Positions 1 to 54,976 are shown, counted from the stretch's first letter. The stretch: DNA of 64,000 nucleotides from a virus (IMGVR_UViG_3300014204_000008:34837-98836), one strand, 5' to 3'. Numbers and translations: made by a program. The notes: generated from the letters alone by a model not told the origin.

Positions 1-218
1 CGTTCCTGTTCGTCCCATGTTCGTTGAACGTATCCCTTGGCCACAGCAGTAGAAAAGGATCACCAATGCACGAGTCAAACGCACATTCTTCTCTCAACAC
101 AGCAACCATTCCTTGTCCTCCGCCTATGGAAGACGAAGAACTGGAAGAGCTTCTCGATGAACGAAACTGGTCTCTCTTTGATGGCCAGCCGTTCTCAATG
201 GAGCCAATGCTTGGTTGA
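1..218 (+). CDS. 3' end of a hypothetical protein (partial, open at window start)
   Basis: Frame is open from nt 3 with no stop before the TAG at 216-218. C-terminus is acidic (EDEELEELLDE). A second overlapping frame (37..276) makes this ambiguous. Confidence 0.25.
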   Translation, partial: FLFVPCSLNVSLGHSSRKGSPMHESNAHSSLNTATIPCPPPMEDEELEELLDERNWSLFDGQPFSMEPMLG

Positions 219-295
219 GCGTTCTCGAAGGGGTAGAGGATTTCGATCCTTTACCCCTTCATTTTTCCCTTCCTAACATACGTTCTCTTTGATTA

Positions 296-385
296 GTTAA
301 CTCAACTTGTCAATTCTTAATATATAAGGGGTTTGTACAAAATGGACCCCTTTCAATGTTAGATTTACCTAACATCTAAACTCAT
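296..385 (+). repeat. copy 1 of a 95-bp upstream repeat (ACTTGTCAATTCTTAAT ... GGGGTTTGTACAAAATGGACCCCTTTCAA ... CATCTAAAC)
   Basis: Near-identical to 858-940. Contains hairpin GGGGT ... ACCCC. Confidence 0.6.
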
Positions 386-860
386 GAAAAACAACCAATC
401 TACCTACTACGAAATCCATTGTCCGCAGCTTCCTGCGGAAATCACGATCGAATCACTTCGTCTTGCGAAGAAACTCACACAAGCATTCGAAGGAGGTAAT
501 CATACGTATCGACTATTCCGTTTTTATGTCATCTCAGCGAGAAAAGGCCACTGGAACCTTAATGGATCTCCTGTTGCTGGCTATGAGAATAGACTCTTTG
601 ATAATTTCGAGGATGTTGAGAGAGAAACGATATTCCTCAATCCACATCATGAAAATGGTTTTGATCTAGGAATGGGTTACTTCTTCATGGCGAAGTCATA
701 CATTCCTCCTGTCGAAGAGAAGAAGAAAAAGATCACCTTCGAGAGCGAATTAGATGCAATTCTACGCAAAAAGGTCTTGAATTGTATCGAAAACGTCCGA
801 GATAAGATGCGTGATGAGATCGTCGACCTCCATGAACGATACATGGATGATGTCTACTAA
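384..860 (+). CDS. hypothetical protein (158 aa)
   Basis: ATG start, TAA stop. Preceded by copy 1 of a 95-bp repeat. No recognisable domain. Confidence 0.6.
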   Translation: MKNNQSTYYEIHCPQLPAEITIESLRLAKKLTQAFEGGNHTYRLFRFYVISARKGHWNLNGSPVAGYENRLFDNFEDVERETIFLNPHHENGFDLGMGYFFMAKSYIPPVEEKKKKITFESELDAILRKKVLNCIENVRDKMRDEIVDLHERYMDDVY

Positions 861-940
861 ACTTGTCAATTCTTAATTTATATGGGGTTTGTACAAAATG
901 GACCCCTTTCAAAGTAAAAAGTTCTTTACATCTAAACCTA
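858..940 (+). repeat. copy 2 of the 95-bp upstream repeat
   Basis: Direct repeat of 296-385. Confidence 0.6.
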
Positions 941-1245
941 TGCCAAGACTTGATTTCATGGACGATGATTGTGACATTGAAGGGTTTCCTCTTGAGGGAG
1001 ATACTTTTGACTGCGATAACACCGAAGGATATCCCTTCGCCTGCCATTGTAGAGACCGACAACAGCAAAATATCGATAATGCGATAGATCAGCGAAATAC
1101 ACAGATGGCTCAAAACCCTGTAGATTCGAATGCTTGGATACATATTGCTTCCGGTTTCGCTGCTCACAGCTCCAATCCTGAAGAAATAGCTCATAAGGCT
1201 GATCTCCTCATTATCGAATTCCGCAATCGTTTCCCTTACAGCTAG
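940..1245 (+). CDS. hypothetical Asp/Cys-rich small protein
   Basis: The ORF track starts at TTG 889. ATG 940 sits in the same position relative to copy 2 of the 95-bp repeat (catctaaacNNATG) as ATG 384 does in copy 1. Followed by a terminator. Confidence 0.45.
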   Translation: MPRLDFMDDDCDIEGFPLEGDTFDCDNTEGYPFACHCRDRQQQNIDNAIDQRNTQMAQNPVDSNAWIHIASGFAAHSSNPEEIAHKADLLIIEFRNRFPYS

Positions 1246-1280
1246 TCTAGACACCTCACCATTGTCAAAATTTGGTACCT

Positions 1281-1307
1281 AGGAGAGGTTTTACCTCTCC
1301 TTTTGGT
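1281..1307 (+). terminator. intrinsic terminator (GGAGAGG-TTTTA-CCTCTCC then TTTTGG)
   Basis: GC stem plus T-run directly after the gene ending at 1245. Confidence 0.5.
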
Positions 1308-1771
1308 ATCTGATACCACTTAACCATCTAATAGGCCTTAGAAACGATTCTAGGGCCTCACACACATGATCACTGTATTTGGTTCCTACCCAATATCTCA
1401 TCTCGATTGGAAGATCAATAGTTCATCTCCATGGTGGACTGTACACAAGAAAAGCAAGATTTGGCTCTACTCAGTCAAATTCTCTTGCTGGTTCACGAGA
1501 ACATTGTTTCACGTGAAACATAAACTTCTCTCCTGGAAGGTTCTTATTTTGAGGTAAAGGTTCTAATTCTTTCTCCCCATTCTCCATAATTTATAAATTC
1601 TCATCCATATTCTCCATAGATTCTCATCCATAACTACCTACCTAATTAAACCTTGCCCATTCAACTTTACATCATTCATCTCATGAACGATCTCCATCTC
1701 TTCCTGTCATAGATTCCTAGTGAATTATTAAAATTCACTTATTACTCATTCATTCTTCATTCTTCATCCCT

Positions 1772-2098
1772 ATGTCCGTACAAACTGTTAAGCGTACTAC
1801 CAACCGTGCCTTTATTGGCCGTGCTTGGATTAATCAAATGGCTGATGGAAAGAAAAACCTTTCTGTTCGTCTTGATCGTGACATTGTTCAAATGGCCATC
1901 AAAACCTCTGATGGTTCAATCATTCGTGTGAATCCTCGTGAATTCAAAGGCAATAAGAGCATCGACATGCTTCTCTTCCCTAATTCACGTCGAGAAGGTA
2001 AGAACGATGCTCATTTTCGTCTTTCTGTTTCTCTTCCTGAAGAACCAGTAGAAGAAAAAGTTGTAGAACCGATTGTCGTTGAAGATATTCAACTCTAA
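1772..2098 (+). CDS. hypothetical protein (108 aa)
   Basis: ATG-to-TAA ORF with an acidic C-terminus. Confidence 0.55.
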   Translation: MSVQTVKRTTNRAFIGRAWINQMADGKKNLSVRLDRDIVQMAIKTSDGSIIRVNPREFKGNKSIDMLLFPNSRREGKNDAHFRLSVSLPEEPVEEKVVEPIVVEDIQL

Positions 2099-2168
2099 TC
2101 ACATAGGAGATCACTTCGGTGGTCTCTTTTTAATTAGACACCTAAGTCTAATTATCATTACATTCCTT

Positions 2169-2717
2169 ATGGGCCTCGACATGTATTTAAGCCGACGTAC
2201 CTACGTCAAGCAATGGAACCATATTCCACCAGAAGAACAATTCCTCGTTAAAGTGACTAAAGGTGGAAAAGAAACAAACATTCAAACTTCTCGTATCTCC
2301 AACGTCATTGAAGAAATTGCTTATTGGAGAAAGGCGAATGCTATTCATCACTGGTTTGTTCTTAATGTTCAAAAGGGCGTTGACGACTGTGGTGAATATC
2401 ACGTTACGAGAGAAAATCTTCAAATTCTTCTTGATACCTGTAAAACCATTCTTGATAATAGTGTCATTATCAAAGCAAAGATTCAGAATGGGACAAGATT
2501 CTCTAACGGAGTAGAGACACCCATCATTGAAGATGGTGAAACCATTCAGAATCCTGAATACGCTGAAAGCTTACTTCCAGTTCAAAATGGATTCTTCTTT
2601 GGTTCTACTGCCTACGATCAATACTACGTTGCGGATCTTCGTTATACGGTAGAAAAGCTCACAGCTCTTCTTGAAGAAGAATGGGTAGGTCACATCTACT
2701 ACAATGCTTCTTGGTAA
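2169..2717 (+). CDS. hypothetical protein
   Basis: Track ORF 2073..2717 overlaps the previous gene. Internal ATG 2169 (MGLDMYLSRR) avoids the overlap. Followed by a hairpin at 2731-2769. Confidence 0.5.
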   Translation: MGLDMYLSRRTYVKQWNHIPPEEQFLVKVTKGGKETNIQTSRISNVIEEIAYWRKANAIHHWFVLNVQKGVDDCGEYHVTRENLQILLDTCKTILDNSVIIKAKIQNGTRFSNGVETPIIEDGETIQNPEYAESLLPVQNGFFFGSTAYDQYYVADLRYTVEKLTALLEEEWVGHIYYNASW

Positions 2718-2730
2718 AGATTAATGGTCA

Positions 2731-2769
2731 TCCCTCCTCTCGATTCATTTCCTGAGGAGGGATTCTTTT
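2731..2769 (+). terminator. putative intrinsic terminator (CCCTCCTC ... GAGGAGGG then TTCTTTT)
   Basis: Inverted repeat with a T-rich tail after the stop at 2717. Confidence 0.4.
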
Positions 2770-2782
2770 AACCAATTCTCTT

Positions 2783-3301
2783 ATGTCATTCCAAGTATAC
2801 CAAGAAGAACACGTCTACTTAGCCACAATCGAAGAAATAAAAGAAACTATTTGGTGTCGATTAGGACCATCGAAAATACATGGTATCGGAGTTATTGCTA
2901 TTCAAGACATTCCAAAAGGAACCAGAATACAATACGAATACGAAAAACTTTTTTGGAACTTACCAGATTCCTATTGGCATTTACTACCAAAAGAAATTCT
3001 CCACCTCTGCTTCGATAGAAACATTTTCGAACGCAACAACAACTTCCTTCTTGAAAATCCTAATAGAAACGCACATTTCAGATCATTCATGAACCATTCA
3101 GATCATCCAAATTCTGATGGAAATATCGTAAATAGAGATATCAAAAAAGGAGAAGAGATTACAGAATCCTACCTTCAAATGTGCAAAACGGATTTTCACC
3201 CAACTGCTAAGAAATACTACAAAGCAAACATCTTCGATAAAAAAGATCCAGAAAAAAATCTTTTCGGAAATGAATTCTTAGAAATCCAAAAACCACAATA
3301 A
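2783..3301 (+). CDS. SET-domain protein (putative protein lysine methyltransferase)
   Basis: N-terminal HGIGVIAIQDIPKGTRIQYEYE matches the GxG...IxkGe SET N-region. FMNHSDHPNS matches the NHSCxPN motif. C-terminal GEEITESY resembles the post-SET ELTxDY. Confidence 0.5.
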   Translation: MSFQVYQEEHVYLATIEEIKETIWCRLGPSKIHGIGVIAIQDIPKGTRIQYEYEKLFWNLPDSYWHLLPKEILHLCFDRNIFERNNNFLLENPNRNAHFRSFMNHSDHPNSDGNIVNRDIKKGEEITESYLQMCKTDFHPTAKKYYKANIFDKKDPEKNLFGNEFLEIQKPQ

Positions 3302-3312
3302 CCTTACTCCCT

Positions 3313-3636
3313 ATGCTCTACACAAATTACGCAACTCTTACCCCATTCAAACTCACAGACAACTTTTACGTCGGTCAAAAAATCGTAAGAATCGTAGGAA
3401 GTTTCTTAAACATCTCTAAAGGAGAAATCGCTACAATCAATACAATCTTAGAATCAAGTGGAAATGAGTACATAAGATTAGACGGCTACGGAGAAATCAA
3501 ATTTGATATTCAATACTTCGCTCCTCTTCCAGAAGAAGAATTCAAACCAACAAAACGAACATCAAATCCTCTTGTTGAAAAATACAAGAAAAAAGCACAA
3601 GAAATGCATCAATCTCTCCATTCTACCTATGCCTAA
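3313..3636 (+). CDS. hypothetical protein (107 aa)
   Basis: ATG-to-TAA ORF. Confidence 0.5.
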   Translation: MLYTNYATLTPFKLTDNFYVGQKIVRIVGSFLNISKGEIATINTILESSGNEYIRLDGYGEIKFDIQYFAPLPEEEFKPTKRTSNPLVEKYKKKAQEMHQSLHSTYA

Positions 3637-3796
3637 AGATATCAAATGCCCATACTGCAATCAGATGGGCTACTCTTGCTTCAAAGATGGACGGTTAATG
3701 TTCCAATGTGGCAGCTTCTGGTGTGGCTTTTCTTGTCTTCTCAAACTTCTCGCATCTCACGTTCCCCAGAAAACAATACCAGAACATAAGAAATAG
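3629..3796 (+). CDS. small zinc-ribbon protein (CPYC ... CGSFWC)
   Basis: ATG 3629 overlaps the upstream stop (ATGCCTAA). Two CxxC pairs. Confidence 0.35.
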   Translation: MPKDIKCPYCNQMGYSCFKDGRLMFQCGSFWCGFSCLLKLLASHVPQKTIPEHKK

Positions 3797-3830
3797 TTCC
3801 TTCTAGTCCTGGCATACATTTATTGTGGTC

Positions 3831-3862
3831 AGTTCTTCTGACCAGTTTGTTGTTTTGGAATG
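3831..3862 (+). terminator. intrinsic terminator (GGTCAG-TTCTT-CTGACC then T-rich)
   Basis: Hairpin plus GTTTGTTGTTTT. Confidence 0.45.
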
Positions 3863-3987
3863 ACTCCATTCTTATTCATGATGTCCAAAATCATGAATAC
3901 AAGAATAACAAAGTCATATCCTAACAAAGGGAAGCACTACGGACACCACAAAGCCATCAATAGGCTTTAAAAAACTTTCGTCCAGCT

Positions 3988-4061
3988 TTCCTTCTAAAGA
4001 TCACCATTCTTCCAGAGAGGCATCGGGTCATGCTTCTCTCTTTGATGGTGATCTTTTTTTC
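3988..4061 (+). terminator. nested inverted repeat ending in T7 (AAGATCACCAT ... ATGGTGATCTTTTTTT)
   Basis: 11-bp outer arms enclosing an AGAGAG/CTCTCT hairpin, followed by a T7 run. Confidence 0.4.
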
Positions 4062-4100
4062 ATAACTCGTACCTTCACAATTAACTCTTATCCAAAACGT

Positions 4101-6308
4101 ATGCCAGAAATCATTACTCGCAAACCATTCCCATTCAAGATCGGATCAGATCCTGAATTCTCAGTTCTCTTCAGAGAAAAGAAAATGCACGCACGAGAAA
4201 CATTCCAAGCCCTTCTCGGTGCATACGACAAACGTTACGCAGAAGGTCACATTGGCGTTGATGGATGTGCAGCCACAGGAGAACTTCGACCAAATGCCTC
4301 CAATACCGCAGACGAACACGCAAACAATATCGAAGGGATTTTCAAGAAAAGCTACAAAAATCTCAAAGGATTCAATTTCACAACCATCTCGCTCTACGCT
4401 CCAATCGGAGGTCATATCCATCTCGATCTCACGCCAAAACACAAAGAACTTCCCGTTGAAAACTTCATTCTTCCATTTCTTCTTCCAATTTGGTTGTCCG
4501 AAGATACCATCTCAAGAGAAATTCGAAAGAAAACTGGTTATGGAAAACTTTGGAATTTCAAAAGAGGTGAAGCTTCAACAGAAGTCGCAACACTTGAAGT
4601 ACGAGGTCCATCCGCAGAATGGATGACCACAAAACAATCAACCATCGCCGTTCTTGGTTATCTCGGAACCATCTGGGCCGAAATTGCAAAACGACCAGAA
4701 TTATTCCAACAAGAACTTCGAGAAATCTGCGGAACAACTTCAACCGACGGAGCACAGATCGCTTCAATGCTTACAAGTGACAACAATCTTTACATCGGAA
4801 CTGTCATGCGGAAGCTTCGATCAATTCTTCCTACCTTCGAATTCTATCAAGAATACAAGAAAGAAATTGATCTCATCTTGAATCCAAAGAAATTCAAGAG
4901 ACTCAAAACATTCTACGAATTTTCCGTCTTCCAAGGATGGGACATTGAAAAGAAAGAAAAAAACATTAATCAGAAAAAATTCATCCAAACAGAATCAGAC
5001 GATGCCGTTAACCTAGACGCCATCCAAGAAATTCTTGACAATGACGATGAAAATTCTGAAAAGATCAATTCTTTCTTCTCACATCAATCCATTGCCCACA
5101 ATACAGATCGAAACGTAAAGCTTCTTGACGAAGAACTCTCCAAACGAATCTTCGCAAATGGAATGAAGCCAGAACAAGAATTATTCTTATTCGGTTTACG
5201 AAAAGGTATTGATTCCCCTCTCGTCTTCAATTCGAAACAAGAACTCTTCGAAGGTGCTGAACTCATCAAAACAGAACAAGATCTAGAAACCTTCAAGAAA
5301 ACAGCAGACAAAATGATTGATAAAGCAAAAAAAGCTTGGAAATCATCCATCTACACAATCAAACCATTAGAAGGAATTGTCCTTCGAAAAGCTGATCCTA
5401 TTTTCATTGGTATTCCATTCGAATGGAGAAGGCTACCAATCCAAATTGATCGTTTCTTAAAACTTGCCTGGAAATATCTTCAACCAAAAATCGAAAATCC
5501 AGTCAAAGTAAACAAAGAAACATTAAAAAAAGATCAAGGCGGAGCATTCACTAAAGCTCTTGAGAAACAACAATCACCTCTCAATAGTTCCGCCATCGAC
5601 TCAAGTTCTCAAGGGCTAATCTATGCTAGACGTGGAATTCAAGAATACGAAGAGGAATTGGAAGCAAGACAACGTAGAGACTTAGAAATCCAACTAGCAA
5701 AAGAATTCCCCAATCTTTCTCCACTAGATTCTTGGTTCGAACACATCAAAAAAACTTGTGAACCAATAAAAATACTGATTCCAAGTCCAGGAATCAACGA
5801 AGAAAGACTCCATTTCTTAAATGGATACAAATTGGAAGAACCATACCAAAACGATACAGCCGTAATCATCATCAACCACGATGATCAACTCGCCCGTATC
5901 CAAATCCTAAAGGAGAAATTCAAAGAAAGATGGCCATCACTCGATCTTACAACACGAGAATTAGCATACCTACCAAGAAAAACAATCGAAGTAAGAACCG
6001 TGGGTGATGATGAATTCAATGAATACTTCAAAAAATTCATCACACCATCAGCTCTTTTCCAAGGAAGTGCATTGCACCAAAGAAACAACAAAAACCCTTA
6101 TCAAATTTTCTTCACTCAAAAACATTCTCAAATAATGAGAGAGATTGATAAGGAAGAATTAGAAGAAATCAATAAGGAAATCACAATAGGCAAAAAACTC
6201 CTTGGAACAATTGAAACGCCAACAACACCAACAGAATCAGAACCAGAGTCAGATGACATGATCATTCCTATTCTCAATCATGTCCACGAAGACCAAGTCT
6301 TCTTTTAA
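4101..6308 (+). CDS. large protein (735 aa) with an N-terminal amidoligase-like region
   Basis: The long ORF sits immediately upstream of a class-II glutamine amidotransferase gene. N-terminal features (IGSDPEFSV, GHIGVDGCAATGELRP, GGHIHLDL) recall the Amidoligase_2/GCS2-like fold, which is reported in conserved neighbourhoods with GAT-II. Assigned from memory only. The C-terminal two thirds are helical and acidic. Confidence 0.6.
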   Translation: MPEIITRKPFPFKIGSDPEFSVLFREKKMHARETFQALLGAYDKRYAEGHIGVDGCAATGELRPNASNTADEHANNIEGIFKKSYKNLKGFNFTTISLYAPIGGHIHLDLTPKHKELPVENFILPFLLPIWLSEDTISREIRKKTGYGKLWNFKRGEASTEVATLEVRGPSAEWMTTKQSTIAVLGYLGTIWAEIAKRPELFQQELREICGTTSTDGAQIASMLTSDNNLYIGTVMRKLRSILPTFEFYQEYKKEIDLILNPKKFKRLKTFYEFSVFQGWDIEKKEKNINQKKFIQTESDDAVNLDAIQEILDNDDENSEKINSFFSHQSIAHNTDRNVKLLDEELSKRIFANGMKPEQELFLFGLRKGIDSPLVFNSKQELFEGAELIKTEQDLETFKKTADKMIDKAKKAWKSSIYTIKPLEGIVLRKADPIFIGIPFEWRRLPIQIDRFLKLAWKYLQPKIENPVKVNKETLKKDQGGAFTKALEKQQSPLNSSAIDSSSQGLIYARRGIQEYEEELEARQRRDLEIQLAKEFPNLSPLDSWFEHIKKTCEPIKILIPSPGINEERLHFLNGYKLEEPYQNDTAVIIINHDDQLARIQILKEKFKERWPSLDLTTRELAYLPRKTIEVRTVGDDEFNEYFKKFITPSALFQGSALHQRNNKNPYQIFFTQKHSQIMREIDKEELEEINKEITIGKKLLGTIETPTTPTESEPESDDMIIPILNHVHEDQVFF

Positions 6309-6353
6309 AAAAGACTGAACTCATTCACACAAACTAACCTTAAACATACACCT

Positions 6354-7592
6354 ATGTGTGGAATCATTGCAGCCTTTTCGACAAAAGAAGATGAGAATCC
6401 GATCAATCAAGAAATCATTGATCAATTCGAAGATCAACAATCGAGAGGCACAAAAGGATTTGGAATCATCTCAATCAACCCAGAAAAGCAAATCCAAGTT
6501 TTCAAAGCCTGCGAACCATACAAATTCCTCCTTGATCTCTACTTCCAAAAATCGAAGATGCTTATCGTCCATCACAGGACACCAACATCTTCTCCAAACT
6601 GGATAGAACAAGCACATCCAATTTTCGTCTCAAATCCTGCATTAAACTTTGACTATTATGTCATCCATAATGGCATGATCTCAAATGCAGAATTTCTCCG
6701 TGAAAAGCATGAGAAGGAATACAACTTCCAATACTCAACACTATTCACTGACGAAAAAGATCTAGAAAAATTCAATGACTCAGAATCCTTAGCCATTGAA
6801 TTAGCCATCTACATAGAAGGAATCCAGAAATCAGCACGATTCGGAGGTTCAGCAGCTTTTATCGCATTACAAATCAACAAGAAAACAGGTACAGCTTCAA
6901 AAGTCTTCTACGGAAGAAATGATCGAAATCCATTAAAAATAGCTGCTACTCGTAGATACCGATTCCTCTCAAGCGAAGGAAAAGGTAATGATGTAAAACC
7001 TGGCGTTCTCTACTCCTTCAAACCAGAAGGAGAGATGAAAATCAACAATAGACCACTCATCATTACTACAGAATACAAACCCTATCCTCAATACAATCAA
7101 CCAGTAAATCACACACCTGGTTATAAGCAAGTTGAAGGATTTAAGGTAAAAGAAACAACCAAGCAATCAAACTTCATTAAACACGAAGAAGACGACTTCG
7201 TAAAGAAAACAAAAACAGAAGCCCTCGAAGGATACGATGATTCAAACAATCAAGACACCTTCGACGAATCAGATACATTCTCTGGACCTCATGCACAAGA
7301 ATTTGAAGATATCTTCGATACAACACAAACAAATATCGAAGATCTTATCCTAGAATTCTTTGAAGCAGCACAACGCGTTGAAACATCAGCCCTAGCTGAT
7401 CCAAGAGAAACTGCCGATAAAATGCACGTAATTCTCAAAGAAGCGTCAAGAAAGATCCAAGAGATCCACGATATTGACACGCTCGATCTAATCAACGATG
7501 CCAGATACGAAGACGAACGGGAATTACCATTCGAAGATGAAAAGGTAGAAAAAACAATTCTCACACCAACCATCTTCAGAAAATCCTCCTAA
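6354..7592 (+). CDS. class-II (Ntn) glutamine amidotransferase-like protein
   Basis: Starts MCGIIAAF with the nucleophile Cys at position 2 after Met, then ...HHRTPTSS... and NGMI. The C-terminal half is acidic with no obvious synthetase domain. Confidence 0.65.
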   Translation: MCGIIAAFSTKEDENPINQEIIDQFEDQQSRGTKGFGIISINPEKQIQVFKACEPYKFLLDLYFQKSKMLIVHHRTPTSSPNWIEQAHPIFVSNPALNFDYYVIHNGMISNAEFLREKHEKEYNFQYSTLFTDEKDLEKFNDSESLAIELAIYIEGIQKSARFGGSAAFIALQINKKTGTASKVFYGRNDRNPLKIAATRRYRFLSSEGKGNDVKPGVLYSFKPEGEMKINNRPLIITTEYKPYPQYNQPVNHTPGYKQVEGFKVKETTKQSNFIKHEEDDFVKKTKTEALEGYDDSNNQDTFDESDTFSGPHAQEFEDIFDTTQTNIEDLILEFFEAAQRVETSALADPRETADKMHVILKEASRKIQEIHDIDTLDLINDARYEDERELPFEDEKVEKTILTPTIFRKSS

Positions 7593-7597
7593 AAACT

Positions 7598-8071
7598 ATG
7601 GCAATTCACCTTGCAACACGGCTTCGTCTCGGAAAAATCGTCCGAGCTTGGAAACAAGAATGGTGGACCGACACATGGTACTCACTATCAGAAGCCACAC
7701 GCTTCGATGCAATCAAAGAATTTCTTCTACAAATCTATGTAGAATTTCCTTCACTCGCAACTCGCAATCTTCGAGTAAACCAAGGAAAAAAATACATGGC
7801 TATAAACAGTGTAAAAGAAAACTGGATTGTCATTAATAGAGAAAACGTATCCATGATCTCTTCACTCCATGAATTAGGTCATCTCATTTATGGAGTAGGT
7901 GAAGAACCGGCAACAAGATTTTCCATCTCATTCTTCCGTACCTTCTTCCCAAAAGAATATCTCGCTTTAAAAAGGAATGGAATGACACCACCAAAATGGA
8001 AACATGCCAATCAACTCACCACTAGACCTAAGACCAGTACCACCACAAACAAGAATAAAAGCAGATCCTGA
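7598..8071 (+). CDS. hypothetical protein with an HExxH motif (possible Zn metallopeptidase, SprT-like)
   Basis: SSLHELGHLIYG is the only functional motif. Coupled to the GAT-II gene with a 5-nt gap. Confidence 0.45.
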   Translation: MAIHLATRLRLGKIVRAWKQEWWTDTWYSLSEATRFDAIKEFLLQIYVEFPSLATRNLRVNQGKKYMAINSVKENWIVINRENVSMISSLHELGHLIYGVGEEPATRFSISFFRTFFPKEYLALKRNGMTPPKWKHANQLTTRPKTSTTTNKNKSRS

Positions 8072-8339
8072 AATAGAACTTGATTGCTTCTTCATTGAAA
8101 TACCATCAACTCAACTCATCATCAAAGGCAAATATTGGAAAAACGGAAACGTTCGAGTTGATCTTATTGATCCAAGCACAGGCAAAAAAGAATGCCTTGG
8201 GAAATCCCTAACTCAAGAACACCTCAAAACACTGATTGCTTTCGCGCTAATCCCGCACAAATTCCCACCAAACATTCAAGCCTTCATCAAAAGCTGGAAT
8301 GTCCTATTGTCATACATAACTTCATTACCAACCCTATAA
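8004..8339 (+). CDS. hypothetical protein (uncertain, overlaps previous gene by 68 nt)
   Basis: ATG ORF with no alternative start. Confidence 0.3.
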   Translation: MPINSPLDLRPVPPQTRIKADPEIELDCFFIEIPSTQLIIKGKYWKNGNVRVDLIDPSTGKKECLGKSLTQEHLKTLIAFALIPHKFPPNIQAFIKSWNVLLSYITSLPTL

Positions 8340-8347
8340 ACACGCCT

Positions 8348-8926
8348 ATGTTGAACTACAACGCCATCATCTCTGCACTCCGCTCCGTCGCACGAGACAT
8401 CCTCCGCCTCGAAAAGGTAGCAAATATTCGTAGCGATCGTCACAAGATGACAGTCAGCTATGATAACGAGATCTCTCTCGCTGAGAAATCCGTTACAGAA
8501 GCTGAAGAGAACATCACAACACTCAAGAAAAACCTCGCACGAGCTACATTCACAAAGAGCCAGATCAGCGACGAAGATCCAGACAAGGAGGAAAAGATGA
8601 ACCAAGCTTCAAAAACAGCAGAAAAGATCACATTAGACATCAAGCAAGCAGAAAAGAATCTAGCCATCATCAAGCTTGACGCAGAAAACGAAATCGAGAA
8701 CCTCAAAGCAGAGAAAGCCAAGCTCGAAACTGCCAACGATCTCGCCATCCAGAAAGTTCAGACGGGAGAAACGAAAGTTTGTACTGAAGACCTTGATTCA
8801 AAGACCCAAGAACTCATCAAGGAACTTATTCCAGGACAGCTTTCAGACGTTATCTCCCAAGCAGTTGCTACACCAGTAGCCACTGAAGAGGACACAAAGA
8901 CTTCAAAGAAATCTTCCTCCAAGTAA
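8348..8926 (+). CDS. coiled-coil protein
   Basis: ATG 8348 is the internal start of track ORF 8192. Heptad-rich sequence with a K/S-rich tail. Confidence 0.5.
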   Translation: MLNYNAIISALRSVARDILRLEKVANIRSDRHKMTVSYDNEISLAEKSVTEAEENITTLKKNLARATFTKSQISDEDPDKEEKMNQASKTAEKITLDIKQAEKNLAIIKLDAENEIENLKAEKAKLETANDLAIQKVQTGETKVCTEDLDSKTQELIKELIPGQLSDVISQAVATPVATEEDTKTSKKSSSK

Positions 8927-8960: not shown

Positions 8961-8998
8961 ACAAAGGAACTATTCCAAAAGGAATAGTTCCTTTTTTT
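8961..8998 (+). terminator. intrinsic terminator (AGGAACTATTCC-AAAA-GGAATAGTTCCT then T7)
   Basis: Perfect 12-bp stem and a T-run 35 nt after the stop. Confidence 0.65.
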
Positions 8999-13365: not shown

Positions 13366-14592
13366 TTATCCCTTCACGACGCCAAGTGGAGTAAGTTCAA
13401 CGATGATGTCGACAAGATCTTCCTGATTCTTCATGACGACATCAATATCTTTATAAGAACCTGGAGCTTCATCCAAATCCTCTACTCCTCGAATAGCATG
13501 AAGAACGCCCATATCGTCTAACTTCTTCTTCTCCTCTTCGAGGTTAAGTGTCCGCTGAGCTTCTCTGCGACCCATCTTCCGTCCTGCACCATGCGAACAA
13601 GAGTCAAAACTGTCCTTACAGCCCTTTCCACGTACAATATATGACTTAGTACCTTGAGAGCCTGGAATGATCCCTACGGTGCCATTTTGGGCCAATGTAG
13701 CCCCTTTGCGATGGACAAGGACATCCTTTCCGAAGTGATGCTCTAATACAGCATAGTTATGAGCGATATCTATGAATTCAGGAAACAGATCATCCGTACC
13801 ATCTTCATGAACGTGAGATCCTTTACGAAGATCCGATCCGCTTACATCAAAGATATCCTTGATACGATCCATCATCAGCTTACGATTCGCTTTTGCGAAC
13901 TCTACACAGTATTGCATCTCTTTCATGTAATCTTTCCCCTGTTGAGAATCGAGAGGAAGGAAAGCAAGATCCCATTCTTTTGGAACTGCTGAATGCCATT
14001 CCGCATTTAGATTTTTTGCAACTCCATTGTAGTAATCGGCCACTTTCTTCCCTAGATTTCGAGATCCTGAATGGATCATGATCCATATAAAGCCATCAGA
14101 TCCTTTTTGGATCTCTATAAAGTGATTTCCACCACCAAGTGTTCCGAGCTGCTTTAAAGCAGATTTATATTCCGATGAAACGATGTGGAGACCGGAAAAG
14201 TAACATAAATTCCCATTCTCTATCGCAACGCCATGAGGCATCAAAAGCTGATCCTGATCCTGTTCATGATGATTGTGTCCAAGAGGTATTTGTTCACGAA
14301 TCCTCCCCATTATCATCTTCAGCTGATCAATGGAAATTTCTGTTAAGCATGTTCGTACAGCTGTAACGCCACATCCAATATCTGATCCAACTGCATAAGG
14401 AATTACAACATTTTCTGTTGCCAAAACTCCACCGATTGGCATTCCGAATCCCTGATGAGAATCCGGCATGATCGCTACGTGGTGAAAGGCAAACGGAAGA
14501 TTAGCTAGATTCTTAGCCTGTTCTAAAGCCCCATCCTCGATCTCATCGAGCCACATCTTGATGGGTATATTCTCCGTTGAAATGATTTTCAT
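13366..14592 (-). CDS. rtcB: RNA-splicing ligase RtcB
   Basis: DSHQGFGMPIGGV, GGGNHFIEIQ, HSGSRNLG, NYAVLEHHF, SHGAGRKMGR and the full-length metal and GTP-binding residues of the RtcB family. Confidence 0.85.
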   Translation of the reverse strand: MKIISTENIPIKMWLDEIEDGALEQAKNLANLPFAFHHVAIMPDSHQGFGMPIGGVLATENVVIPYAVGSDIGCGVTAVRTCLTEISIDQLKMIMGRIREQIPLGHNHHEQDQDQLLMPHGVAIENGNLCYFSGLHIVSSEYKSALKQLGTLGGGNHFIEIQKGSDGFIWIMIHSGSRNLGKKVADYYNGVAKNLNAEWHSAVPKEWDLAFLPLDSQQGKDYMKEMQYCVEFAKANRKLMMDRIKDIFDVSGSDLRKGSHVHEDGTDDLFPEFIDIAHNYAVLEHHFGKDVLVHRKGATLAQNGTVGIIPGSQGTKSYIVRGKGCKDSFDSCSHGAGRKMGRREAQRTLNLEEEKKKLDDMGVLHAIRGVEDLDEAPGSYKDIDVVMKNQEDLVDIIVELTPLGVVKG

Positions 14593-16314: not shown

Positions 16315-16830
16315 CTATTTATCTCCAAAATATGCGATGATCTTTTCTACAATTTCTTCCGTAATTCCTGTTGCCCATTCCGTTTTGAAGAAGTGAGACA
16401 TCTGCTCAGGAAGCATATCAGAATCATCATCAAGAATAGCATACTCAACTACTTCAGTATGTTCATCTAACCATGCTTTAATCTCTTTTCCACGTTCACA
16501 CTCTTCCGCTCCTCCTGGAATTGGCATATGAGGTGTCTTTCCATAAAGAGGTGCGACGCGTTTCGATACTTCATCCGTAGATTCATCCCAAAGCCTCCAC
16601 GTTGAGCTGAGAACGACTTTAAGATCTGGAACATTGAGGATGATCTTCCCAACGAGAAACGAAAGATATGGATCAATGCCAATGAAACCAGCTGACGTAC
16701 GCTGAACCGTTCTTTTCGAATTTACAACACCATCTACGTCTAGAAAAAGCACCTTTATTCCTTTTTTCTTTTTGTCATCCATAAGAAATCTATTTATAGA
16801 ATTAGTTTCTCTACCATCTCGTCCATCCAA
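16315..16830 (-). CDS. HAD-superfamily hydrolase (putative nucleotidase or polynucleotide phosphatase)
   Basis: VLFLDVDGVVNS carries the HAD motif I DxDG. LSSTWR and ILDDD supply the downstream motifs. Confidence 0.55.
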   Translation of the reverse strand: MDGRDGRETNSINRFLMDDKKKKGIKVLFLDVDGVVNSKRTVQRTSAGFIGIDPYLSFLVGKIILNVPDLKVVLSSTWRLWDESTDEVSKRVAPLYGKTPHMPIPGGAEECERGKEIKAWLDEHTEVVEYAILDDDSDMLPEQMSHFFKTEWATGITEEIVEKIIAYFGDK

Positions 16831-17237: not shown

Positions 17238-17801
17238 CTAGAACTTCACCTTTGGAGCTTTCTCCGATCCTACGTCACTCTTAAATAGTGAACGTGGATC
17301 GAAACCGAACAGCTTGGCGAAAATATTCTTAGGAAACCGACGAATGTTCAAGTTATAGTTTGAAGCGGTCGTATTATACTGATCGCGAGCTTTTGCAATA
17401 GAATCTTCAGTCTTGCCAAGATCTGCCTGCAATGACTTTACGTTCTCATTACTTTTAAGCTCAGGATAAGCTTCTGTGATGACAAGGAGACGAGACAGTG
17501 CAGATTCTACATTCCCAGCTGCTGCTGCCTGTTCACTAGAACTCTTTGATCCAGCATAGGCAGAACGTGCATCGGCGATGTCTTTGAAAACCTTTTGTTC
17601 CTGACCCTGCGCGCCCTTTACGGTCTCTACAAGATTCTCGATAAGATCAAGGCGACGCTGATACTGCGTCTCAACCATCGACCATGACTTATCAACTTGG
17701 GTACCACTCTTTACGAGTGAATTGTAATTCCCGACGAGCCAAAGACCCGCAAGAACGAAGAAACCAGCAATGGAGAGAAAAATGATAGTAGCTTTAGACA
17801 T
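17238..17801 (-). CDS. lemA: LemA-family protein
   Basis: N-terminal TM, then NYNSLV ... QVDKSWSMVETQYQRRLDLIENLVETVKGAQGQEQKVFKDIADARS, typical of LemA. Confidence 0.7.
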   Translation of the reverse strand: MSKATIIFLSIAGFFVLAGLWLVGNYNSLVKSGTQVDKSWSMVETQYQRRLDLIENLVETVKGAQGQEQKVFKDIADARSAYAGSKSSSEQAAAAGNVESALSRLLVITEAYPELKSNENVKSLQADLGKTEDSIAKARDQYNTTASNYNLNIRRFPKNIFAKLFGFDPRSLFKSDVGSEKAPKVKF

Positions 17802-40351: not shown

Positions 40352-40428
40352 TCTGACGTAGTTCAGCTGGATAGAACAGAGGACTTCTAAGCCTTTAGAC
40401 ATCGGTTCGAACCCGATCGTCAGAACCA
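40352..40428 (+). tRNA. tRNA-Arg (anticodon UCU), CCA encoded
   Basis: 7-bp acceptor TCTGACG/CGTCAGA, D-arm GTTC-AGCTGGATA-GAAC, loop CTTCTAA, T-arm ATCGG-TTCGAAC-CCGAT, ACCA end. Confidence 0.6.
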
Positions 40429-40502
40429 TGGAGTTTATGTCAGTTATTCTCCTATAAAAATATTGATACGGGTTTGGCAGGAACGTATAAAAACTGTCCC
40501 AT

Positions 40503-40576
40503 CGCGGAATGGAGAAATGGCATCTCGTCAGTTTCATAAGCTGAAGTTTCCAGTTCAAATCTGGATTCCGCATCCA
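40503..40576 (+). tRNA. tRNA-Met (anticodon CAU), C1:A72 mismatch, CCA encoded
   Basis: D-arm GAGA-AATGGCA-TCTC, anticodon arm TCAGT-TTCATAA-GCTGA, T-arm TCCAG-TTCAAAT-CTGGA. Could instead be an Ile(LAU) or initiator-type tRNA. Confidence 0.6.
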
Positions 40577-40577
40577 G

Positions 40578-40665
40578 GCAAGCGTATACTGCTAAGGAGG
40601 CAGCGCAGACTGTAAATCTGTTGTCTTAAATGACTCGCTCGGATCGTTCCCGAGAGCTTGCACCA
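40578..40665 (+). tRNA. tRNA-Tyr (anticodon GUA), class II with long variable arm, CCA encoded
   Basis: Anticodon arm GCAGA-CTGTAAA-TCTGT, variable hairpin, T-arm CTCGG-ATCGTTC-CCGAG. Four nt between acceptor and D-stem is unusual. Confidence 0.45.
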
Positions 40666-40666
40666 A

Positions 40667-41024
40667 GGGTCTGATCATATTTCGATAGGTTGCTCATTGA
40701 AAAATTGCAGGACAAGCTGTAGTAACTTGTTAAAAGGCTACGAAATTGTAATTGCCAAAGCTATTGAAAGTCTGAAGTCGTTCTACACTTCGGTGTTTCG
40801 AACCCCTTCATTCGTTGCGTCATTCGTCTAACGAACTGATGCCCGATCATCATGATTTGTTTGTAGGTCATGAATGATCGTCACTTATACAAACTGGTGG
40901 AGAACACAAATCTCACGCTCTGAATGTAGGTACATAGCAGCTCTTGCTTTAAGGAGCTAATCCTGTGAATGAAATTTTTCATATATCAGCCTATACACGG
41001 GAGAATCACCCGTCAGATCCACCA
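40667..41024 (+). ncRNA. ssrA: tmRNA (ssrA), about 358 nt
   Basis: 5' GGGTCTGATCATATTTCGATAGG aligns with the E. coli tmRNA 5' end GGGGCUGAUUCUGGAUUCGACGGG. 3' ACGGGAGAATCACCCGTCAGATCCACCA aligns with GCGGGUUCAACUCCCGCCAGCUCCACCA. Acceptor GGGTCTG/CAGATCC carries the G3:U70 alanine identity pair. A-rich tract, TAA, TT, then GCC is a resume-codon context like E. coli UAG-UC-GCA. Confidence 0.65.
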
Positions 41025-41027
41025 GAG

Positions 41028-41102
41028 AGGAATGTAGCTCAACGGTAGAGCAATTCGCTTATATCGAATAGGTCGTGGGATCGTCACCCACCATTCCTAC
41101 CA
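41028..41102 (+). tRNA. tRNA-Ile (anticodon UAU), CCA encoded
   Basis: Acceptor AGGAATG/CATTCCT, D-arm GCTC-AACGGTA-GAGC, anticodon arm ATTCG-CTTATAT-CGAAT, T-arm GTGGG-ATCGTCA-CCCAC. Confidence 0.55.
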
Positions 41103-41103
41103 T

Positions 41104-41191
41104 CGGCCTGTGATGAAATGGTATACATGGGAGGCTTAGACCCTCTTGCCCTTTATTGGGTTTGCAAGTTCGAATCTTGCCAGACCGACCA
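41104..41191 (+). tRNA. tRNA-Leu (anticodon UAG), class II, CCA encoded
   Basis: Acceptor CGGCCTG/CAGACCG (one mismatch), anticodon arm GGAGG-CTTAGAC-CCTCT, long variable arm, T-arm GCAAG-TTCGAAT-CTTGC. Confidence 0.55.
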
Positions 41192-41321: not shown

Positions 41322-42128
41322 ATGAACAAGATTAATCTTATCATTTCTGGTGTCATTGCATTTGCACTTTTAAGCATCATAATGATCCTAAATCCATTTG
41401 CACAGGTTTCAGCTGGTGAGCGTGGAGTTGTTCTAACATGGGGTGCTGCCGGAGATCAGGTTCTTACAGAAGGCCTCCACATGGTCACACCAATCGCTCA
41501 ACATGTTCAGATTGTAGATATTCGAGTTCAGAAGGAACAGGTAGATGTTGCAGCAGCTTCAAAAGATCTCCAGACAGTGAATTCAACAGTTGCTATTAAC
41601 TTTCATCCAGATCCAAGTAAGGTAAACATTCTTTGGAAGACCATTGGTAGTGATTATTCATCTCGAATCATCTCTCCAGTCGTTCAGGAAGGCGTTAAGG
41701 CTGTCACAGCCCGTTATACGGCAGAAGAACTCATTACGAAGCGAGAAGAGGTTCGTGACGGTATCAAGAATATTCTCACTGAACGTTTGAGCTTGAGTAA
41801 CATCCTTATTGATGATTTCTCTATCATGAACTTCTCCTTCTCTAAGGGATTCAATGATGCGATTGAAGCGAAACAGACAGCTGTACAAGATGCATTAACG
41901 GCAGAAAATAAGTTGCGACAAATCAAGGTTGAAGCCGAACAGCGTGTTGCCACAGCTCAGGCAGAAGCTCAAGCTATCAAACTTCAGAGTGATGCCGCGA
42001 ACAATGACAAGTATATCAATTTGAAAGCCCTTGAAGTTCAACTTGAAGCAGTCCATAAATGGAATGGTGTCTTGCCAACACAGATGACACCGAATGGAGC
42101 AGTTCCTTTCCTGAATCTTACGAAATAG
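41322..42128 (+). CDS. SPFH/Band-7 (stomatin/prohibitin-like) membrane protein
   Basis: N-terminal TM, ERGVVLTWG ... GLHMVTP ... IVDIRVQ, then a long coiled-coil tail with AQAEAQAIKLQ, typical of SPFH. Confidence 0.7.
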   Translation: MNKINLIISGVIAFALLSIIMILNPFAQVSAGERGVVLTWGAAGDQVLTEGLHMVTPIAQHVQIVDIRVQKEQVDVAAASKDLQTVNSTVAINFHPDPSKVNILWKTIGSDYSSRIISPVVQEGVKAVTARYTAEELITKREEVRDGIKNILTERLSLSNILIDDFSIMNFSFSKGFNDAIEAKQTAVQDALTAENKLRQIKVEAEQRVATAQAEAQAIKLQSDAANNDKYINLKALEVQLEAVHKWNGVLPTQMTPNGAVPFLNLTK

Positions 42129-44867: not shown

Positions 44868-44905
44868 AGAACTTATCCCTTGGCTTAATTGCTGAGGGAT
44901 TTGTT
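44868..44905 (+). terminator. intrinsic terminator (ATCCCT ... AGGGAT then TTGTTTTTT)
   Basis: Hairpin plus T-run about 60 nt downstream of the promoter, convergent with the end of the giant - strand gene. Confidence 0.45.
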
Positions 44906-47900
44906 TTTTATGAACGAGTTGATGGCTCCGAAATACTTCTCAACGATTGGTTCGATCTGAGTGATAATACCCATGTAGCGATAAACATCCTCTTCGCGCT
45001 TTGCCCCTTCATAGCTTGAATAGTTCCTATTCATATCAGGTCTCGTGACAAGGTGGTATCCAATACGAAGGAGCTGATCTTCTGAGAGACCACTTCCATT
45101 TATCATATAGTCTTCAAAGACTTTATCCATGATCTTTTCAGATTCTCCAGCAAGTTTACCGGTTTCCATATTGTAGTCTCTACTGAACTCTTTCTCATCA
45201 AAAACTTCACCCTTCTCTTGGGCGGCTCTTCGCGCCTTATCCATGACAACGGAACGCGCTTTACGTCGCGCTTGGCGAGAAGCGTTGATGTTCGCGGCCA
45301 TCTTTACAATGTGAGATTCAGGCGTGCCAGAAGTAATCTTAAAGAAGTCCTCACCTTTTTCTTCAATAAGTGATTTCTTTACTTCCTGTGCCGCAAAAAG
45401 GTCTGCGGCGTTCTGGGCCTTGATATCTGTACGCTCAATTGGTTTTAAACCTCTGAACTGATCCAGTATCTCAAAGAATGGCGTCAACTTCCCATCGGCT
45501 GCATTGATTCGATCATTGAGGTTAAAGATTTTCTCTAAAGAATACACGAGATCAGATGTCGATTCCAGGGTATTCTTTTCTTCGTCGACGAGTTGAAATG
45601 CCGTCTGGAAGTCTCGAAGCTCTTTAGAAATCTTCAGGATCTCCTTCTTCGTCGTAACTCCAAAAAGATGTGAGATGAGAACTTGGTTCGCATCCTGAAG
45701 ACCTGTTTCCTTCAATCGACGTTCAAAGTCTCCATAGGTAACACCATCAACGGTCTCCTGTGCCAATTGACCAACGAAACGCGGATCGTTCTTCATATTC
45801 GAAGCAACAGGAAGATTCGAATCTCTTACTTGAGAGAGAATGCGACCTATTCCTTGTGCCTGACCAACGCCTTTCCCAGAATTCACTGCGGCATTTACCG
45901 TATAGCGAACACCTTGATCAGTCATTTCGATTGGCTTCTCTCCAGCTCCTTCTCCGAATTTCGTAAGAGGATCAAGAACAATATCTTTATCACTCTTACG
46001 CTGTGTTTCAATATAGTCAGCGTATTCCTCAGGAATGCCTCTCCCCTGGAGTTCATGCCCCTTCCCATAGATAGGGAAGACTTCATAAGCATCTCCATCA
46101 AAGTCGAACTCTTTTCGGACATATCCATCATATGCAGAAGTGATAATCGTGCCTTTTTTCACCTTCATTCCAAAGTCCTCAGCAATAACAACGTCTGCTT
46201 TTGCAAGAGCCGTAAGTCTCGTGATAGGTTGGCGAATGGAAACAACACTCGTTGGTTTTCCGATGCGCTCCCAGTCTGCACGAGAAAGCATGATTTCATT
46301 TGGCTTCAGATAGAGGTTCTTTGCCTGTTCCTTAAGGAACGTTTTTCCATAATCACTTAGACGGTTTGCCTTATCAGCGTCTTCAAGAACATCTACAATT
46401 CTATAGATATCTGCTTGATCGTCTAAGAGGTATCGAGCGTCTTTCTCTGAAAGAACGCTGTCACCAAATAACTCATTGAAATGAGTTCGTAACGTTCCTA
46501 CTTTGTCCTTTACTTCTTTTGACTTTGCGAATGTCACGAGTTCTGCGACATGAGCGAAGTGACCAAGGTCTTCTTTCTTTGGATGATTTGCAACTTCAGA
46601 AATCTTCAAAGCCCCTTTTGAAGCAAGATCTGGTTGAACGTAATTGTAGGTAGATTCTCCTAAGAATCTTCCTGACATGATCTTTGATTGGAAAGCTTTT
46701 GCGATATTCTCTTCAAGTTTCTTTTCAATAAACATGTCTGGCGTATCCGAGCGACTGAGGAGCTGATTCATCTTCTCCCAATCTGCACTATCAATTTCTC
46801 CAACAAGGTCTATACCAAATTTCTCTTTGAATTTCGTATTAGCCTCTCGAATAACCTCACGTATCGGTGTCCCGTTTTTCTTTGCTTCTCGAATCGAGGA
46901 GAAGAGATCTGTGTAATCCTTGATTGGTTCTGAGAAGCGTTCCGTGAAAGCTTTATTTACAACAGGATCATTTGAAGCTCGTGAGTAGATAGAAGCAGCA
47001 GCCTTTGGCTTTGTAACCGCTTTCTTTGGGACAACCTTTGCGTGCCAAGATGAAGAAGGCGTCGTGCCTCCAACAATCCCATCTCCCATATCTTCAAGAA
47101 GTCCTAACCCAATTTTAACATTCTCTGAAGAGCCAACGATCGAGAACTTATCAAGAGGTTTCCCAATACGTCGTTCGAAAGAACGTTGCATGTGCTCAGG
47201 CATTGGATAGAATTGACCTTTGATGATTGCTGTTCCACTTCCAGTGTTCCAGACAAGGTTAGATTTGATATATCCAAGAGATGGGTCAGAATTCATTGCC
47301 TTCAAGAGAAGTTTAAATCCTTCTTCGGGAATGAAGTTCGCTCCATCCATAATATCTTTTCCATTAATCCCATCAAGAACCTTTGTACGCTTCACACTTT
47401 CCGTTGGGAGTTGGAGCATGTTCTCATCGACAAGCCCAAGTTCTCCCATTTTCTTTCCTGGAAAAACGAAGAGTGGCATCTGAACTTCATTCCCCTTTTC
47501 ATCTCGAAGATCGAGTTTTGGTTCAGAAAAGTTGAGAATGCTTGTACGCTTGTTGAGCTTACCGAAATTCGAAGCTGTTTTCTGATCAAGACCTACGACA
47601 TTCTGATAGAAAGAAACTCTAAATCGCTCACTTGGCGTCATCTTTTCAGCACCTTCGCCCGTATACATGTTTGCAAGCTTCTCGTTGTATTTTACCAAAA
47701 TCGTATTCTTAATGTTGTTTCCAGCAATACCAATAACCACGTAACTGTCCTTTTCAGCACGTCCACTATTAACGATATCAAGAACTGCTTGATAGGCATC
47801 ATCTGATTTTGTTTCAACCAAGCCATCTGTCTCATAACGCTTCAATTCAATCTTTCCAATATCTGGATTTCTTGATGTGAAGTCTTCAATGAGTCTATCT

Positions 47901-54974: not shown

Positions 54975-54976
54975 AC

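Follow-up and report, generated by a model that had tools for sequence, protein, structure and literature searches.

A long-form COOH-NH2 ligase, a class-II glutamine-amidotransferase-like hydrolase and a predicted minimal zincin in a conserved tailed-phage gene unit: a putative variant of the phiEco32/LUZ24-type amidoligase systems

The 64,000-nt stretch of viral DNA IMGVR_UViG_3300014204_000008:34837-98836, in the following called the window, carries genes for a 735-residue amidoligase-like protein, a protein starting with MCGIIAAF and a small protein with a HELGH motif. Peptide tagging or metabolite synthesis, as proposed in the initial annotation of this locus, is a prediction of what the cluster does. 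Listing of the open reading frames (ORFs) placed the three genes on the plus strand at 4101-6308, 6354-7592 and 7598-8071, exactly as annotated, and returned the same gaps of 45 nt (6309-6353) and 5 nt (7593-7597) between them. The view of the locus as a three-gene cluster was correct for the adjacency of the genes but not for the size of the cluster, as the unit conserved in related loci (L-numbers below) comprises five to six genes. In the window it consists of five genes, 4101-8926, flanked on both sides by terminator-like hairpins found in a consensus scan:

3826-3844, plus strand: terminator-like hairpin after the upstream gene (consensus scan, 7-bp stem; weak evidence when taken alone)
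4101-6308, plus strand: long-form COOH-NH2 ligase, 735 residues (PF14395, family alignment)
6354-7592, plus strand: hydrolase resembling class-II glutamine amidotransferases (GAT) with an N-terminal nucleophile (Ntn) cysteine, 412 residues, start MCGIIAAF (homologue alignment, PurF/GlmS matches)
7598-8071, plus strand: minimal zincin-like HExxH protein, 157 residues, containing SSLHELGHLIYG (invariant motif, predicted model)
8004-8339, plus strand: gene 4, "F7", about 100-110 residues (homologues at the same position in L001, L005, L006, L009 and others)
8348-8926, plus strand: gene 5, "F4", coiled-coil protein, 192 residues (aligned homologues, matches to its hidden Markov model, HMM)
8963-8994, no strand assigned: bidirectional terminator-like hairpin (14-bp stem, T-runs on both strands)

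The hairpin at 3826-3844, separated from the ligase gene by about 250 nt of non-coding DNA, probably marks the 5' boundary of the transcription unit. Its probable 3' boundary is the hairpin at 8963-8994, located where plus-strand genes give way to minus-strand genes. If translation of gene 4 begins at its first ATG, the start of the gene lies within the non-conserved 3' part of the HExxH gene. The length of 192 residues for gene 5 counts from Met53 of the ORF 8192-8926, and its alignment with homologues in L001 and L005-L008 begins at MLNYNAIISALRS. Pfam gave no match for gene 4 and none for gene 5. The ligase gene is on record on a 98.9-kb contig and was also found on a 52.5-kb Logan contig.

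Residues 14-191 of the ligase matched PF14395 (phage phiEco32-like COOH.NH2 ligase type 2) with 33.9 bits at a cut-off of 25 (E 2.4e-8). The amidoligase-like N-terminus noticed earlier is thus that of a ligase of the glutamine synthetase (GS)/GCS2 type, but the family is PF14395 and not the Amidoligase_2 family (PF12224) that had been suggested. Amidoligase_2 gave no match at E <=1 and was rejected, a negative that is meaningful because the same search detects PF12224 in proteins of L084 and L091. Homologues of the ligase are rare, only 25 among 5.8 billion proteins, with about 30% identity and PF14395 present in 25/25. They measure 416-672 residues, which makes the window protein the longest family member found; its unusual size, already remarked upon in the initial annotation, was confirmed at 735 residues, and the structural reading given there is supported. 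In an alignment of 44 sequences G15, D17, P18 and E19, G52, D54 and G55, E61, R63 and P64, G103, G104, H105 and H107, R142, Y147 and G148, E166 and R168, W174 and E194 are invariant, and conservation extends to about residue 490 with N334, D336, G365, G437, P439 and R443. Within this set D17, E19, D54, E61, R63, H105, H107, R142, E166 and R168 are the putative metal- and nucleotide-binding residues, the individual roles being inferred from sequence.

The catalytic domain with the GCS2/GS fold covers residues 14-200 and is followed by a family-conserved helical region and an alpha/beta region (201-495), within which residues 330-495 make up an extra conserved basic domain with an isoelectric point (pI) of 9.6. 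The AlphaFold model is confident over residues 1-490, and the closest folds include YbdK, gamma-glutamylcysteine ligases and PafA/Dop. The modelled structure and the invariant acidic, His and Arg residues together show a predicted fold of the GCS2/PafA/glutamine-synthetase superfamily, so that the 735-residue protein does have the GS/GCS2-like fold on which its first assignment depended. Enzymes of this superfamily activate a carboxylate with ATP and then couple it to an amine. The remaining part, from about residue 496 to 735, is an extension unique to the window, of low model confidence and with no homologue in the related loci. Two homologues known from NCBI records (P0006 and P0007) carry long Cys-rich C-terminal repeats (CxCxCPxC...) in place of this extension, as additional Zn-binding modules.

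The second protein belongs to a large family, with more than 281 homologues that are about 50% identical over residues 1-235. This part constitutes the catalytic domain, and residues 236-412 form a variable, acidic helical tail (pI 4.5). Across 34 aligned homologues the invariant or near-invariant positions are C2, R31-G32, H73-H74-R75-x-P77-T78-S79, H105-N106-G107 and N141-D142-S143-E144; C2 is present in 32 of the 34, and the two exceptions resemble mis-called starts. The family profile matched the N-termini of three PurF structures in the PDB (best E 2.6e-7), with an alignment that covers Cys1, the H-x-R-x-P-T segment and H-N-G. The NDSE motif lies outside this alignment and would, judged by motif and position, be the equivalent of PurF Asp127. 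Arg26, Arg73, Thr76, Asn101-Gly102 and Asp127, which we take to be the glutamine-site and oxyanion residues of PurF, all have counterparts in the GAT motifs. In PurF and GlmS those residues make up the oxyanion hole and hold glutamine by its alpha-carboxylate and its alpha-amino group. The window protein keeps them, so that glutamine or a gamma-glutamyl amide should fit its pocket.

The NCBIfam model of the GlmS N-terminus also matched the GAT (E 1.3e-7). Pfam GATase_6 gave 20.3 bits for the window protein, under the cut-off of 27, and PF13522 is on record for many homologues. The class-II assignment made from the MCG start is borne out by an Ntn cysteine and glutamine-site motifs conserved across the 34 homologues; the alignment does show a conserved Ntn active site. 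A canonical fused class-II amidotransferase of the PurF, GlmS, AsnB or GltB kind was considered and rejected: the C-terminal synthase domain was not found, and residues 236-412 gave no family match that would indicate a synthase or acceptor domain and had no homologue in the other loci. Motifs and profile matches together show protein 2 to be, as predicted from its sequence, a stand-alone class-II (Cys-Ntn) glutamine-amidotransferase-like hydrolase.

The HELGH motif of the third protein (residues 91-95, nt 7868-7882), noted from the beginning, proved to be an HExxH motif that is invariant in a genuine family with a zincin-like predicted fold. A word-indexed search with this protein returned as its only match the query itself, and it took an exhaustive phmmer comparison with 1.84 billion representatives to find a family of at least 120 clusters at 50% identity. 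Its members have about 140 residues, nearly all between 130 and 170. Invariant in 58 sequences are W18, S85, H91, E92, H95, E102, F117 and L124, and Y5, P6, C106 and H129 are near-invariant; candidates for the third metal ligand are the invariant E102 and the near-invariant C106 and H129. The model (predicted local distance difference test, pLDDT, 87.7) consists of two helices, a three-stranded sheet, the HExxH helix 86-98 and a helix beginning at E102. The C-terminal 28 residues or so are not conserved.

Comparison with known families gave little. The window protein had no match to Pfam, PHROG or NCBIfam models, and 0/58 members matched a peptidase Pfam family at E <=0.01, the one RabGAP-TBC match being spurious. 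A sequence profile search of the PDB produced no more than a local match to an M32 enzyme, over the motif S-I-x-S-x-x-H-E-x-G-H-x-L-Y, and a BFVD search only weak IrrE- and SprT-like similarities, none at E <=0.001. The predicted architecture resembles that of minimal zincins (M32 carboxypeptidase core, the minigluzincins selecase and proabylysin, IrrE/ImmA/CapP, SprT/Spartan), with the HExxH helix packed on a small beta-sheet and a following helix that contains a conserved Glu. It differs from them in the candidate third ligand, Glu102, just 7 residues past the second His, and in an N-terminal Y-P-T...W-K motif specific to this family. On these sequence and model grounds protein 3 is a predicted minimal HExxH zincin that founds a previously undescribed family.

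Related loci were collected with the GAT alignment and, separately, a narrower HExxH alignment as seeds, and their ORFs were scored with family HMMs; the GAT-seeded loci came from viral, metagenome and genome collections, the last including metagenome-assembled genomes (MAGs). The long-form ligase was found in 23 distinct loci. The GAT gene lies directly downstream in 23/23, with gaps of -13 to +58 nt, and the zincin gene comes next in 22/23, the exception being L106. This gene-neighbourhood analysis, which the initial annotation had proposed, indicates that the arrangement is not due to chance, as ligase and GAT adjoin in all of these loci and the zincin follows in all but one. The zincin-seeded search independently returned the same ligase-GAT-zincin triads. 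F7 (about 100 residues) and the coiled-coil F4 (about 150 residues) usually follow the triad, and the F4 HMM matched in about 14 related loci. A further protein, "F5", combines a Zn-ribbon with a conserved E-Y-G loop and a poly-acidic segment and is found in about 17 loci at a variable position, either upstream of the ligase or downstream of the zincin. In the window a 55-residue ORF at 3629-3796 (plus strand, MPKDIKCPYCNQMGYSCFKDGRLMFQCGSFWCG...) begins like the F5 proteins located upstream of the ligase elsewhere; the F5 HMM was negative for this ORF, which may be a degenerate F5 remnant.

The zincin is also found beside other ligases. In L084, a 140-kb viral contig, positions 21-6459 hold two successive ligase-Ntn pairs, then three small ORFs and an HExxH zincin. 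The second ligase matched Amidoligase_2 (E 3.8e-9), and the first has similar motifs and no Pfam match; both carry multiple N-terminal CxxC Zn-ribbons, and each is followed by one Ntn protein with an MC start. In L091 and its duplicate L092 an Amidoligase_2 gene is followed by the zincin, and in L093, a zincin-seeded locus, neither an amidoligase nor an Ntn protein lies beside it. For the L084 and L091 proteins hhalign against the family profiles was uninformative (probability <4%), and the Pfam matches were used instead. The zincin thus adjoins PF14395 ligases as well as Amidoligase_2 (L084, L091) and therefore tracks two amidoligase families. More distant GAT relatives (30-39% identity) lie on contigs of 22-50 kb, where their partners are short PF14395 ligases and the zincin is missing. 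Genes of the Peptidase_C26/class-I GATase-like type (gamma-glutamyl hydrolase family; E 9e-23 and 3e-22) lie within a few kb of the GAT in L005 (2926-3795), L009 (4850-5704), L025 (also L026; 6785-7618) and L034 (5687-6406), that is in both the long-ligase and the short-ligase subgroups; the window yielded no such gene.

The window itself is a fragment of a tailed-phage genome, with a tail/virion structural block, an SNF2-type helicase, SbcC, RecA, RuvC, RtcB and four tRNAs. A search of 50,697 GenBank phage records turned up no cultured relative: neither the region (megablast) nor the ligase (tblastn) had a match, and the GAT matched only one 2-kb E. coli phage fragment (30% identity). The only close GAT relatives in the genome collections, L174 and L175, are on contigs binned with MAGs of Candidatus Paceibacterota and Candidatus Shapirobacteria, bacteria of the candidate phyla radiation (CPR/Patescibacteria). 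The records behind L001 and several further loci carry the label "Hain_H..", in several cases with the tag "01um", which we read as size-fraction samples of Hainich groundwater. The triad-carrying phages of about 90-100 kb may infect CPR bacteria.

Phage amidoligase systems of the phiEco32/LUZ24 type were reportedly predicted in 2009 by Iyer, Abhiman, Burroughs and Aravind. Later descriptions of that proposal speak of cell-wall modification or secondary-metabolite synthesis, with a function still to be explored (PMC10580990, PMC11318856). Pairs of an amidoligase and a class-II GAT are annotated in many phages, among them LUZ24-like, phiEco32, OM43 and Pseudoalteromonas phages, and in the literature searched no substrate or product was reported for such pairs, the papers either restating the 2009 prediction or calling the function unknown. 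In LUZ24 (NC_010325) gp16-gp22 comprise a 266-residue COOH.NH2 ligase, a hypothetical protein, an Amidoligase_2 protein, a 510-residue GATase, a RimK-like ATP-grasp protein and a gamma-glutamyl cyclotransferase (GGCT). The window locus resembles LUZ24 and phiEco32 in having a PF14395 ligase beside a class-II GATase-like protein with an N-terminal Cys, and in the position of the cluster in the non-structural region of a tailed phage. LUZ24 gp19 is related to the GAT family (hhalign 95%), whereas gp16 reached 46% with the ligase family and has only the GGHIH...YG...E-x-R core in common with it. The LUZ24 ligase, at 266 residues, is also much shorter than the 500-735 residues with an extra conserved region seen here, and gp19 has a C-terminal region of about 300 residues where the window GAT has its acidic helical tail. 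In place of the other LUZ24 genes, the variant described here has a linked zincin, Zn-ribbon/acidic protein and pair of small proteins. No Amidoligase_2, ATP-grasp or GGCT/AIG2 Pfam domain was detected in about 48 scanned window ORFs, and the window therefore carries a distinct variant of the LUZ24/phiEco32 class. LUZ24 gp17, gp18, gp21 and gp22 had no phmmer match in window ORFs of >=40 codons (stop-to-stop), a comparison that is insensitive because even gp16 and gp19 gave no match.

The cluster was also compared with other known systems. PafA/Dop pupylation differs in its Pup-like tag with a conserved C-terminal GGQ/GGE, which was not found here, in the deamidase/hydrolase candidate, which is an Ntn GAT-II and not a PafA paralogue, and in the proteasome context that is missing here; sequence identity is only 10-14%. 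Each of the linked small proteins F5, F7 and F4 was considered as a Pup-like tag and discarded, as their C-termini are not conserved. YbdK/GCS2 and gamma-glutamylcysteine ligases are about 12% identical to the window ligase, in which D-P-E replaces the E-x-E motif of the first strand; compared with YbdK/GCS2, window-type ligases have 300 to 500 more residues and are encoded in phages together with dedicated hydrolases. In gamma-glutamyl pathways GS-like ligases are paired with GATase-like hydrolases, namely EgtA/EgtC, GmaS/MgsA and PuuA/PuuD. The likeness here lies in a GS-superfamily ligase paired with an enzyme that keeps a glutamine/gamma-glutamyl pocket, and those pairs differ in serving cellular small-molecule pathways. 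MurT/GatD likewise has a separate ATP-dependent ligase and glutaminase subunit encoded side by side (PMC3267633), but with a Mur-ligase fold and a class-I GATase in place of the GCS2 fold and class II seen here. Klebsiella CfmP, an ATP-grasp enzyme, was set aside as not relevant to the window system.

We tentatively favour, at somewhat less than even confidence, a co-transcribed phage module that makes and processes an amide or isopeptide bond by gamma-glutamyl-type tagging and trimming. The ligase would recognise a target with its basic domain (residues 330-495) and would join the gamma-carboxyl of a glutamate-type unit to an amine of that target; the GAT-II enzyme and the zincin would then mature, edit or remove the modification. 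The target would most likely be a protein, possibly the linked Zn-ribbon/acidic protein or else a host protein. Gamma-glutamyl ligation is preferred because the closest folds are gamma-glutamyl ligases and PafA/Dop, because the GAT pocket fits gamma-glutamyl amides, because a C26 hydrolase, GGCT and a RimK-like ligase recur in related or sister clusters, and because the known pairs of GS-like ligases and GATase-like hydrolases act in this way; the 2009 prediction for phage amidoligase systems points the same way. The tight synteny, with genes that overlap or nearly abut, and the independent link of the zincin to amidoligases also speak for such a module. A macromolecular target is preferred on account of the large additional domain conserved in the ligase and of the accompanying Zn-ribbon/acidic protein F5, a possible substrate or adaptor. 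A self-contained, pupylation-like form of conjugation in phages, possibly those of CPR bacteria, is unlikely; here the PafA/Dop-fold ligase, with a substrate-recognition domain of its own, would glutamyl-mark a host protein or the Zn-ribbon/acidic protein, the free-standing GAT-II would act as deamidase or eraser and the zincin as processing peptidase.

Several points weigh against tagging and trimming. The function of phage amidoligase systems was still called unknown in 2023 (PMC10580990), and no substrate, product or activity has been shown for related phage systems in the literature found. None of the small proteins encoded in the cluster ends in a conserved Gln, Glu or Gly, as a Pup- or ubiquitin-like tag would, and the F5 HMM had no match in the window. 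A true glutaminase supplying ammonia would suit the conserved glutamine pocket just as well, and the strict pairing of one ligase with one GAT, kept in both pairs of L084, resembles that of subunits of a complex and would favour the main rival. In this rival the two proteins would form a two-subunit glutamine-dependent amidotransferase, the ligase serving as synthase and the GAT-II as glutaminase. Ammonia derived from glutamine would be passed to an acyl-phosphate made by the ligase to give a carboxamide, on a peptidoglycan precursor or a protein or peptide carboxylate that the zincin creates or trims. We consider it doubtful, but it accounts for the invariant glutamine-site motifs aligned with PurF, with the invariant NDSE fitting the remaining Asp, and for a GAT that has no acceptor domain of its own and always lies directly after the ligase, often with overlapping stop and start codons and in L084 in two successive pairs. 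There is a precedent in MurT/GatD, a ligase and a separate glutaminase that amidate the cell wall (PMC3267633), and the 2009 phiEco32 prediction has been reported as cell-wall modification (PMC10580990, PMC11318856). The GGCT of LUZ24 and the Peptidase_C26 of related loci, however, fit gamma-glutamyl intermediates better, and the Amidase_3 similarity of the ligase model is weak, not assignable to a residue range and without conserved Zn ligands. To our knowledge, moreover, no enzyme of the GS/GCS2 fold uses a glutaminase subunit.

The proposed tagging module was also weighed against three explanations of lower probability. An auxiliary metabolic unit for a small gamma-glutamyl compound or amide (a glutathione-like peptide, a gamma-glutamyl-polyamine, glutamine or asparagine), helping infection of a metabolically reduced host, is improbable. 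YbdK and gamma-glutamylcysteine ligases among the closest folds, the annotation of related phage genes as auxiliary metabolic genes (AMGs) for nitrogen metabolism (PMC10945688, PMC10580990) and nearest genome matches in bins of CPR bacteria, with their reduced metabolism, would be consistent with such a unit. But the AMG claims are annotation only for these enzymes, no other metabolic genes are linked, and the roughly 300 extra conserved ligase residues, the peptidase-like zincin and the Zn-ribbon and coiled-coil partners are features of systems directed at macromolecules. Slightly less probable again is a role in DNA or nucleotide hypermodification, in which the module would extend or amidate a group on a base. 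Lee et al. (PMC8989533) found amidoligase/glutamine-amidotransferase genes beside 5-HMUDK and aGPT-Pplase in viral contigs, the extra ligase domain is basic (pI 9.6) and the cluster lies in a non-structural genome region; against this, no 5-HMUDK, aGPT-Pplase, dUMP hydroxymethylase, TET/JBP or DpdA-type gene was found in the roughly 48 window ORFs scanned, nor any marker gene by Pfam scan among 12 flanking genes of six related loci. This marker scan covers the 64-kb window of the 98.9-kb contig, and the other flanking genes of related loci were clustered by similarity only. Finally, it is very improbable that the three genes are unrelated neighbours in a phage early region with fortuitous motifs. 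The GATase_6 score under the cut-off and an HExxH protein without a family match would agree with that idea, but order and orientation are kept in 22 to 23 of 23 loci that have diverged to a ligase identity of about 30%, the motifs are invariant in families of 44, 34 and 58 sequences and the fold predictions agree with the motifs; the synteny statistics effectively refute it.

Other features of the window were recorded in the course of the analysis. About 800 nt upstream of the ligase, at 2783-3301 (plus strand), lies a gene for a SET-domain protein (PF00856, E 3.8e-9, above cut-off) that is not conserved in related loci; its product is a possible protein lysine methyltransferase in the phage early region. 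An RtcB RNA ligase (13366-14592, minus strand, PF01139 on record) and a protein with the "Swiss Army Knife RNA repair" domain HAD_SAK_2 (16315-16830, minus strand, E 1.3e-25) suggest a phage RNA-repair module, and a protein that clusters with the window RtcB (blastp family F8) is found upstream of the triad in L005. A LemA-family protein (17238-17801, minus strand, E 2.4e-51) and an SPFH/Band-7 protein (41322-42128, plus strand, E 3.1e-31) belong to membrane-associated families that are unusual in phage genomes. The four tRNA genes are clustered at 40352-41191 (plus strand): Arg-TCT, Met-CAT, Ile-TAT and Leu-TAG. A 2614-residue ORF at 44885-52729 and its large neighbours at 52701-54974 and 56030-58402 (all minus strand) had no PHROG match at E 1e-5, and a 349-residue protein at 54977-56026 matched phage metallo-endopeptidase/peptidase PHROGs, some of them annotated as endolysin or tape-measure; the predicted gene content of the region 44885-58402 is that of a structural or injection module, from a phage lineage that has been poorly sampled. 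The GC skew is negative (-0.10 to -0.20) over the first 26 kb or so, despite the switch of coding strand at about 9 kb, and changes sign near 26 kb, which may be a replication-related boundary.

In summary, the predicted proteins and their synteny identify the window locus as a variant of the phiEco32/LUZ24-type amidoligase systems that includes a putative, previously undescribed zincin family. This variant supplies a compact unit of five to six genes with strict synteny, a new zincin family (about 140 residues) tracking two amidoligase families and a candidate protein partner with a Zn-ribbon and an acidic stretch. With these three elements the system becomes easier to reconstitute, and a protein rather than a metabolite may be indicated as the target. 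The possible link to CPR phages would raise the interest of the system further. Were the pupylation-like reading true, a fourth writer-eraser-processor system for isopeptide marks, assembled independently of the others, would be at hand among the viruses of prokaryotes. A product that turned out to be a new mark on protein, cell wall or DNA would bring a new chemistry into the conflict between phages and their hosts.

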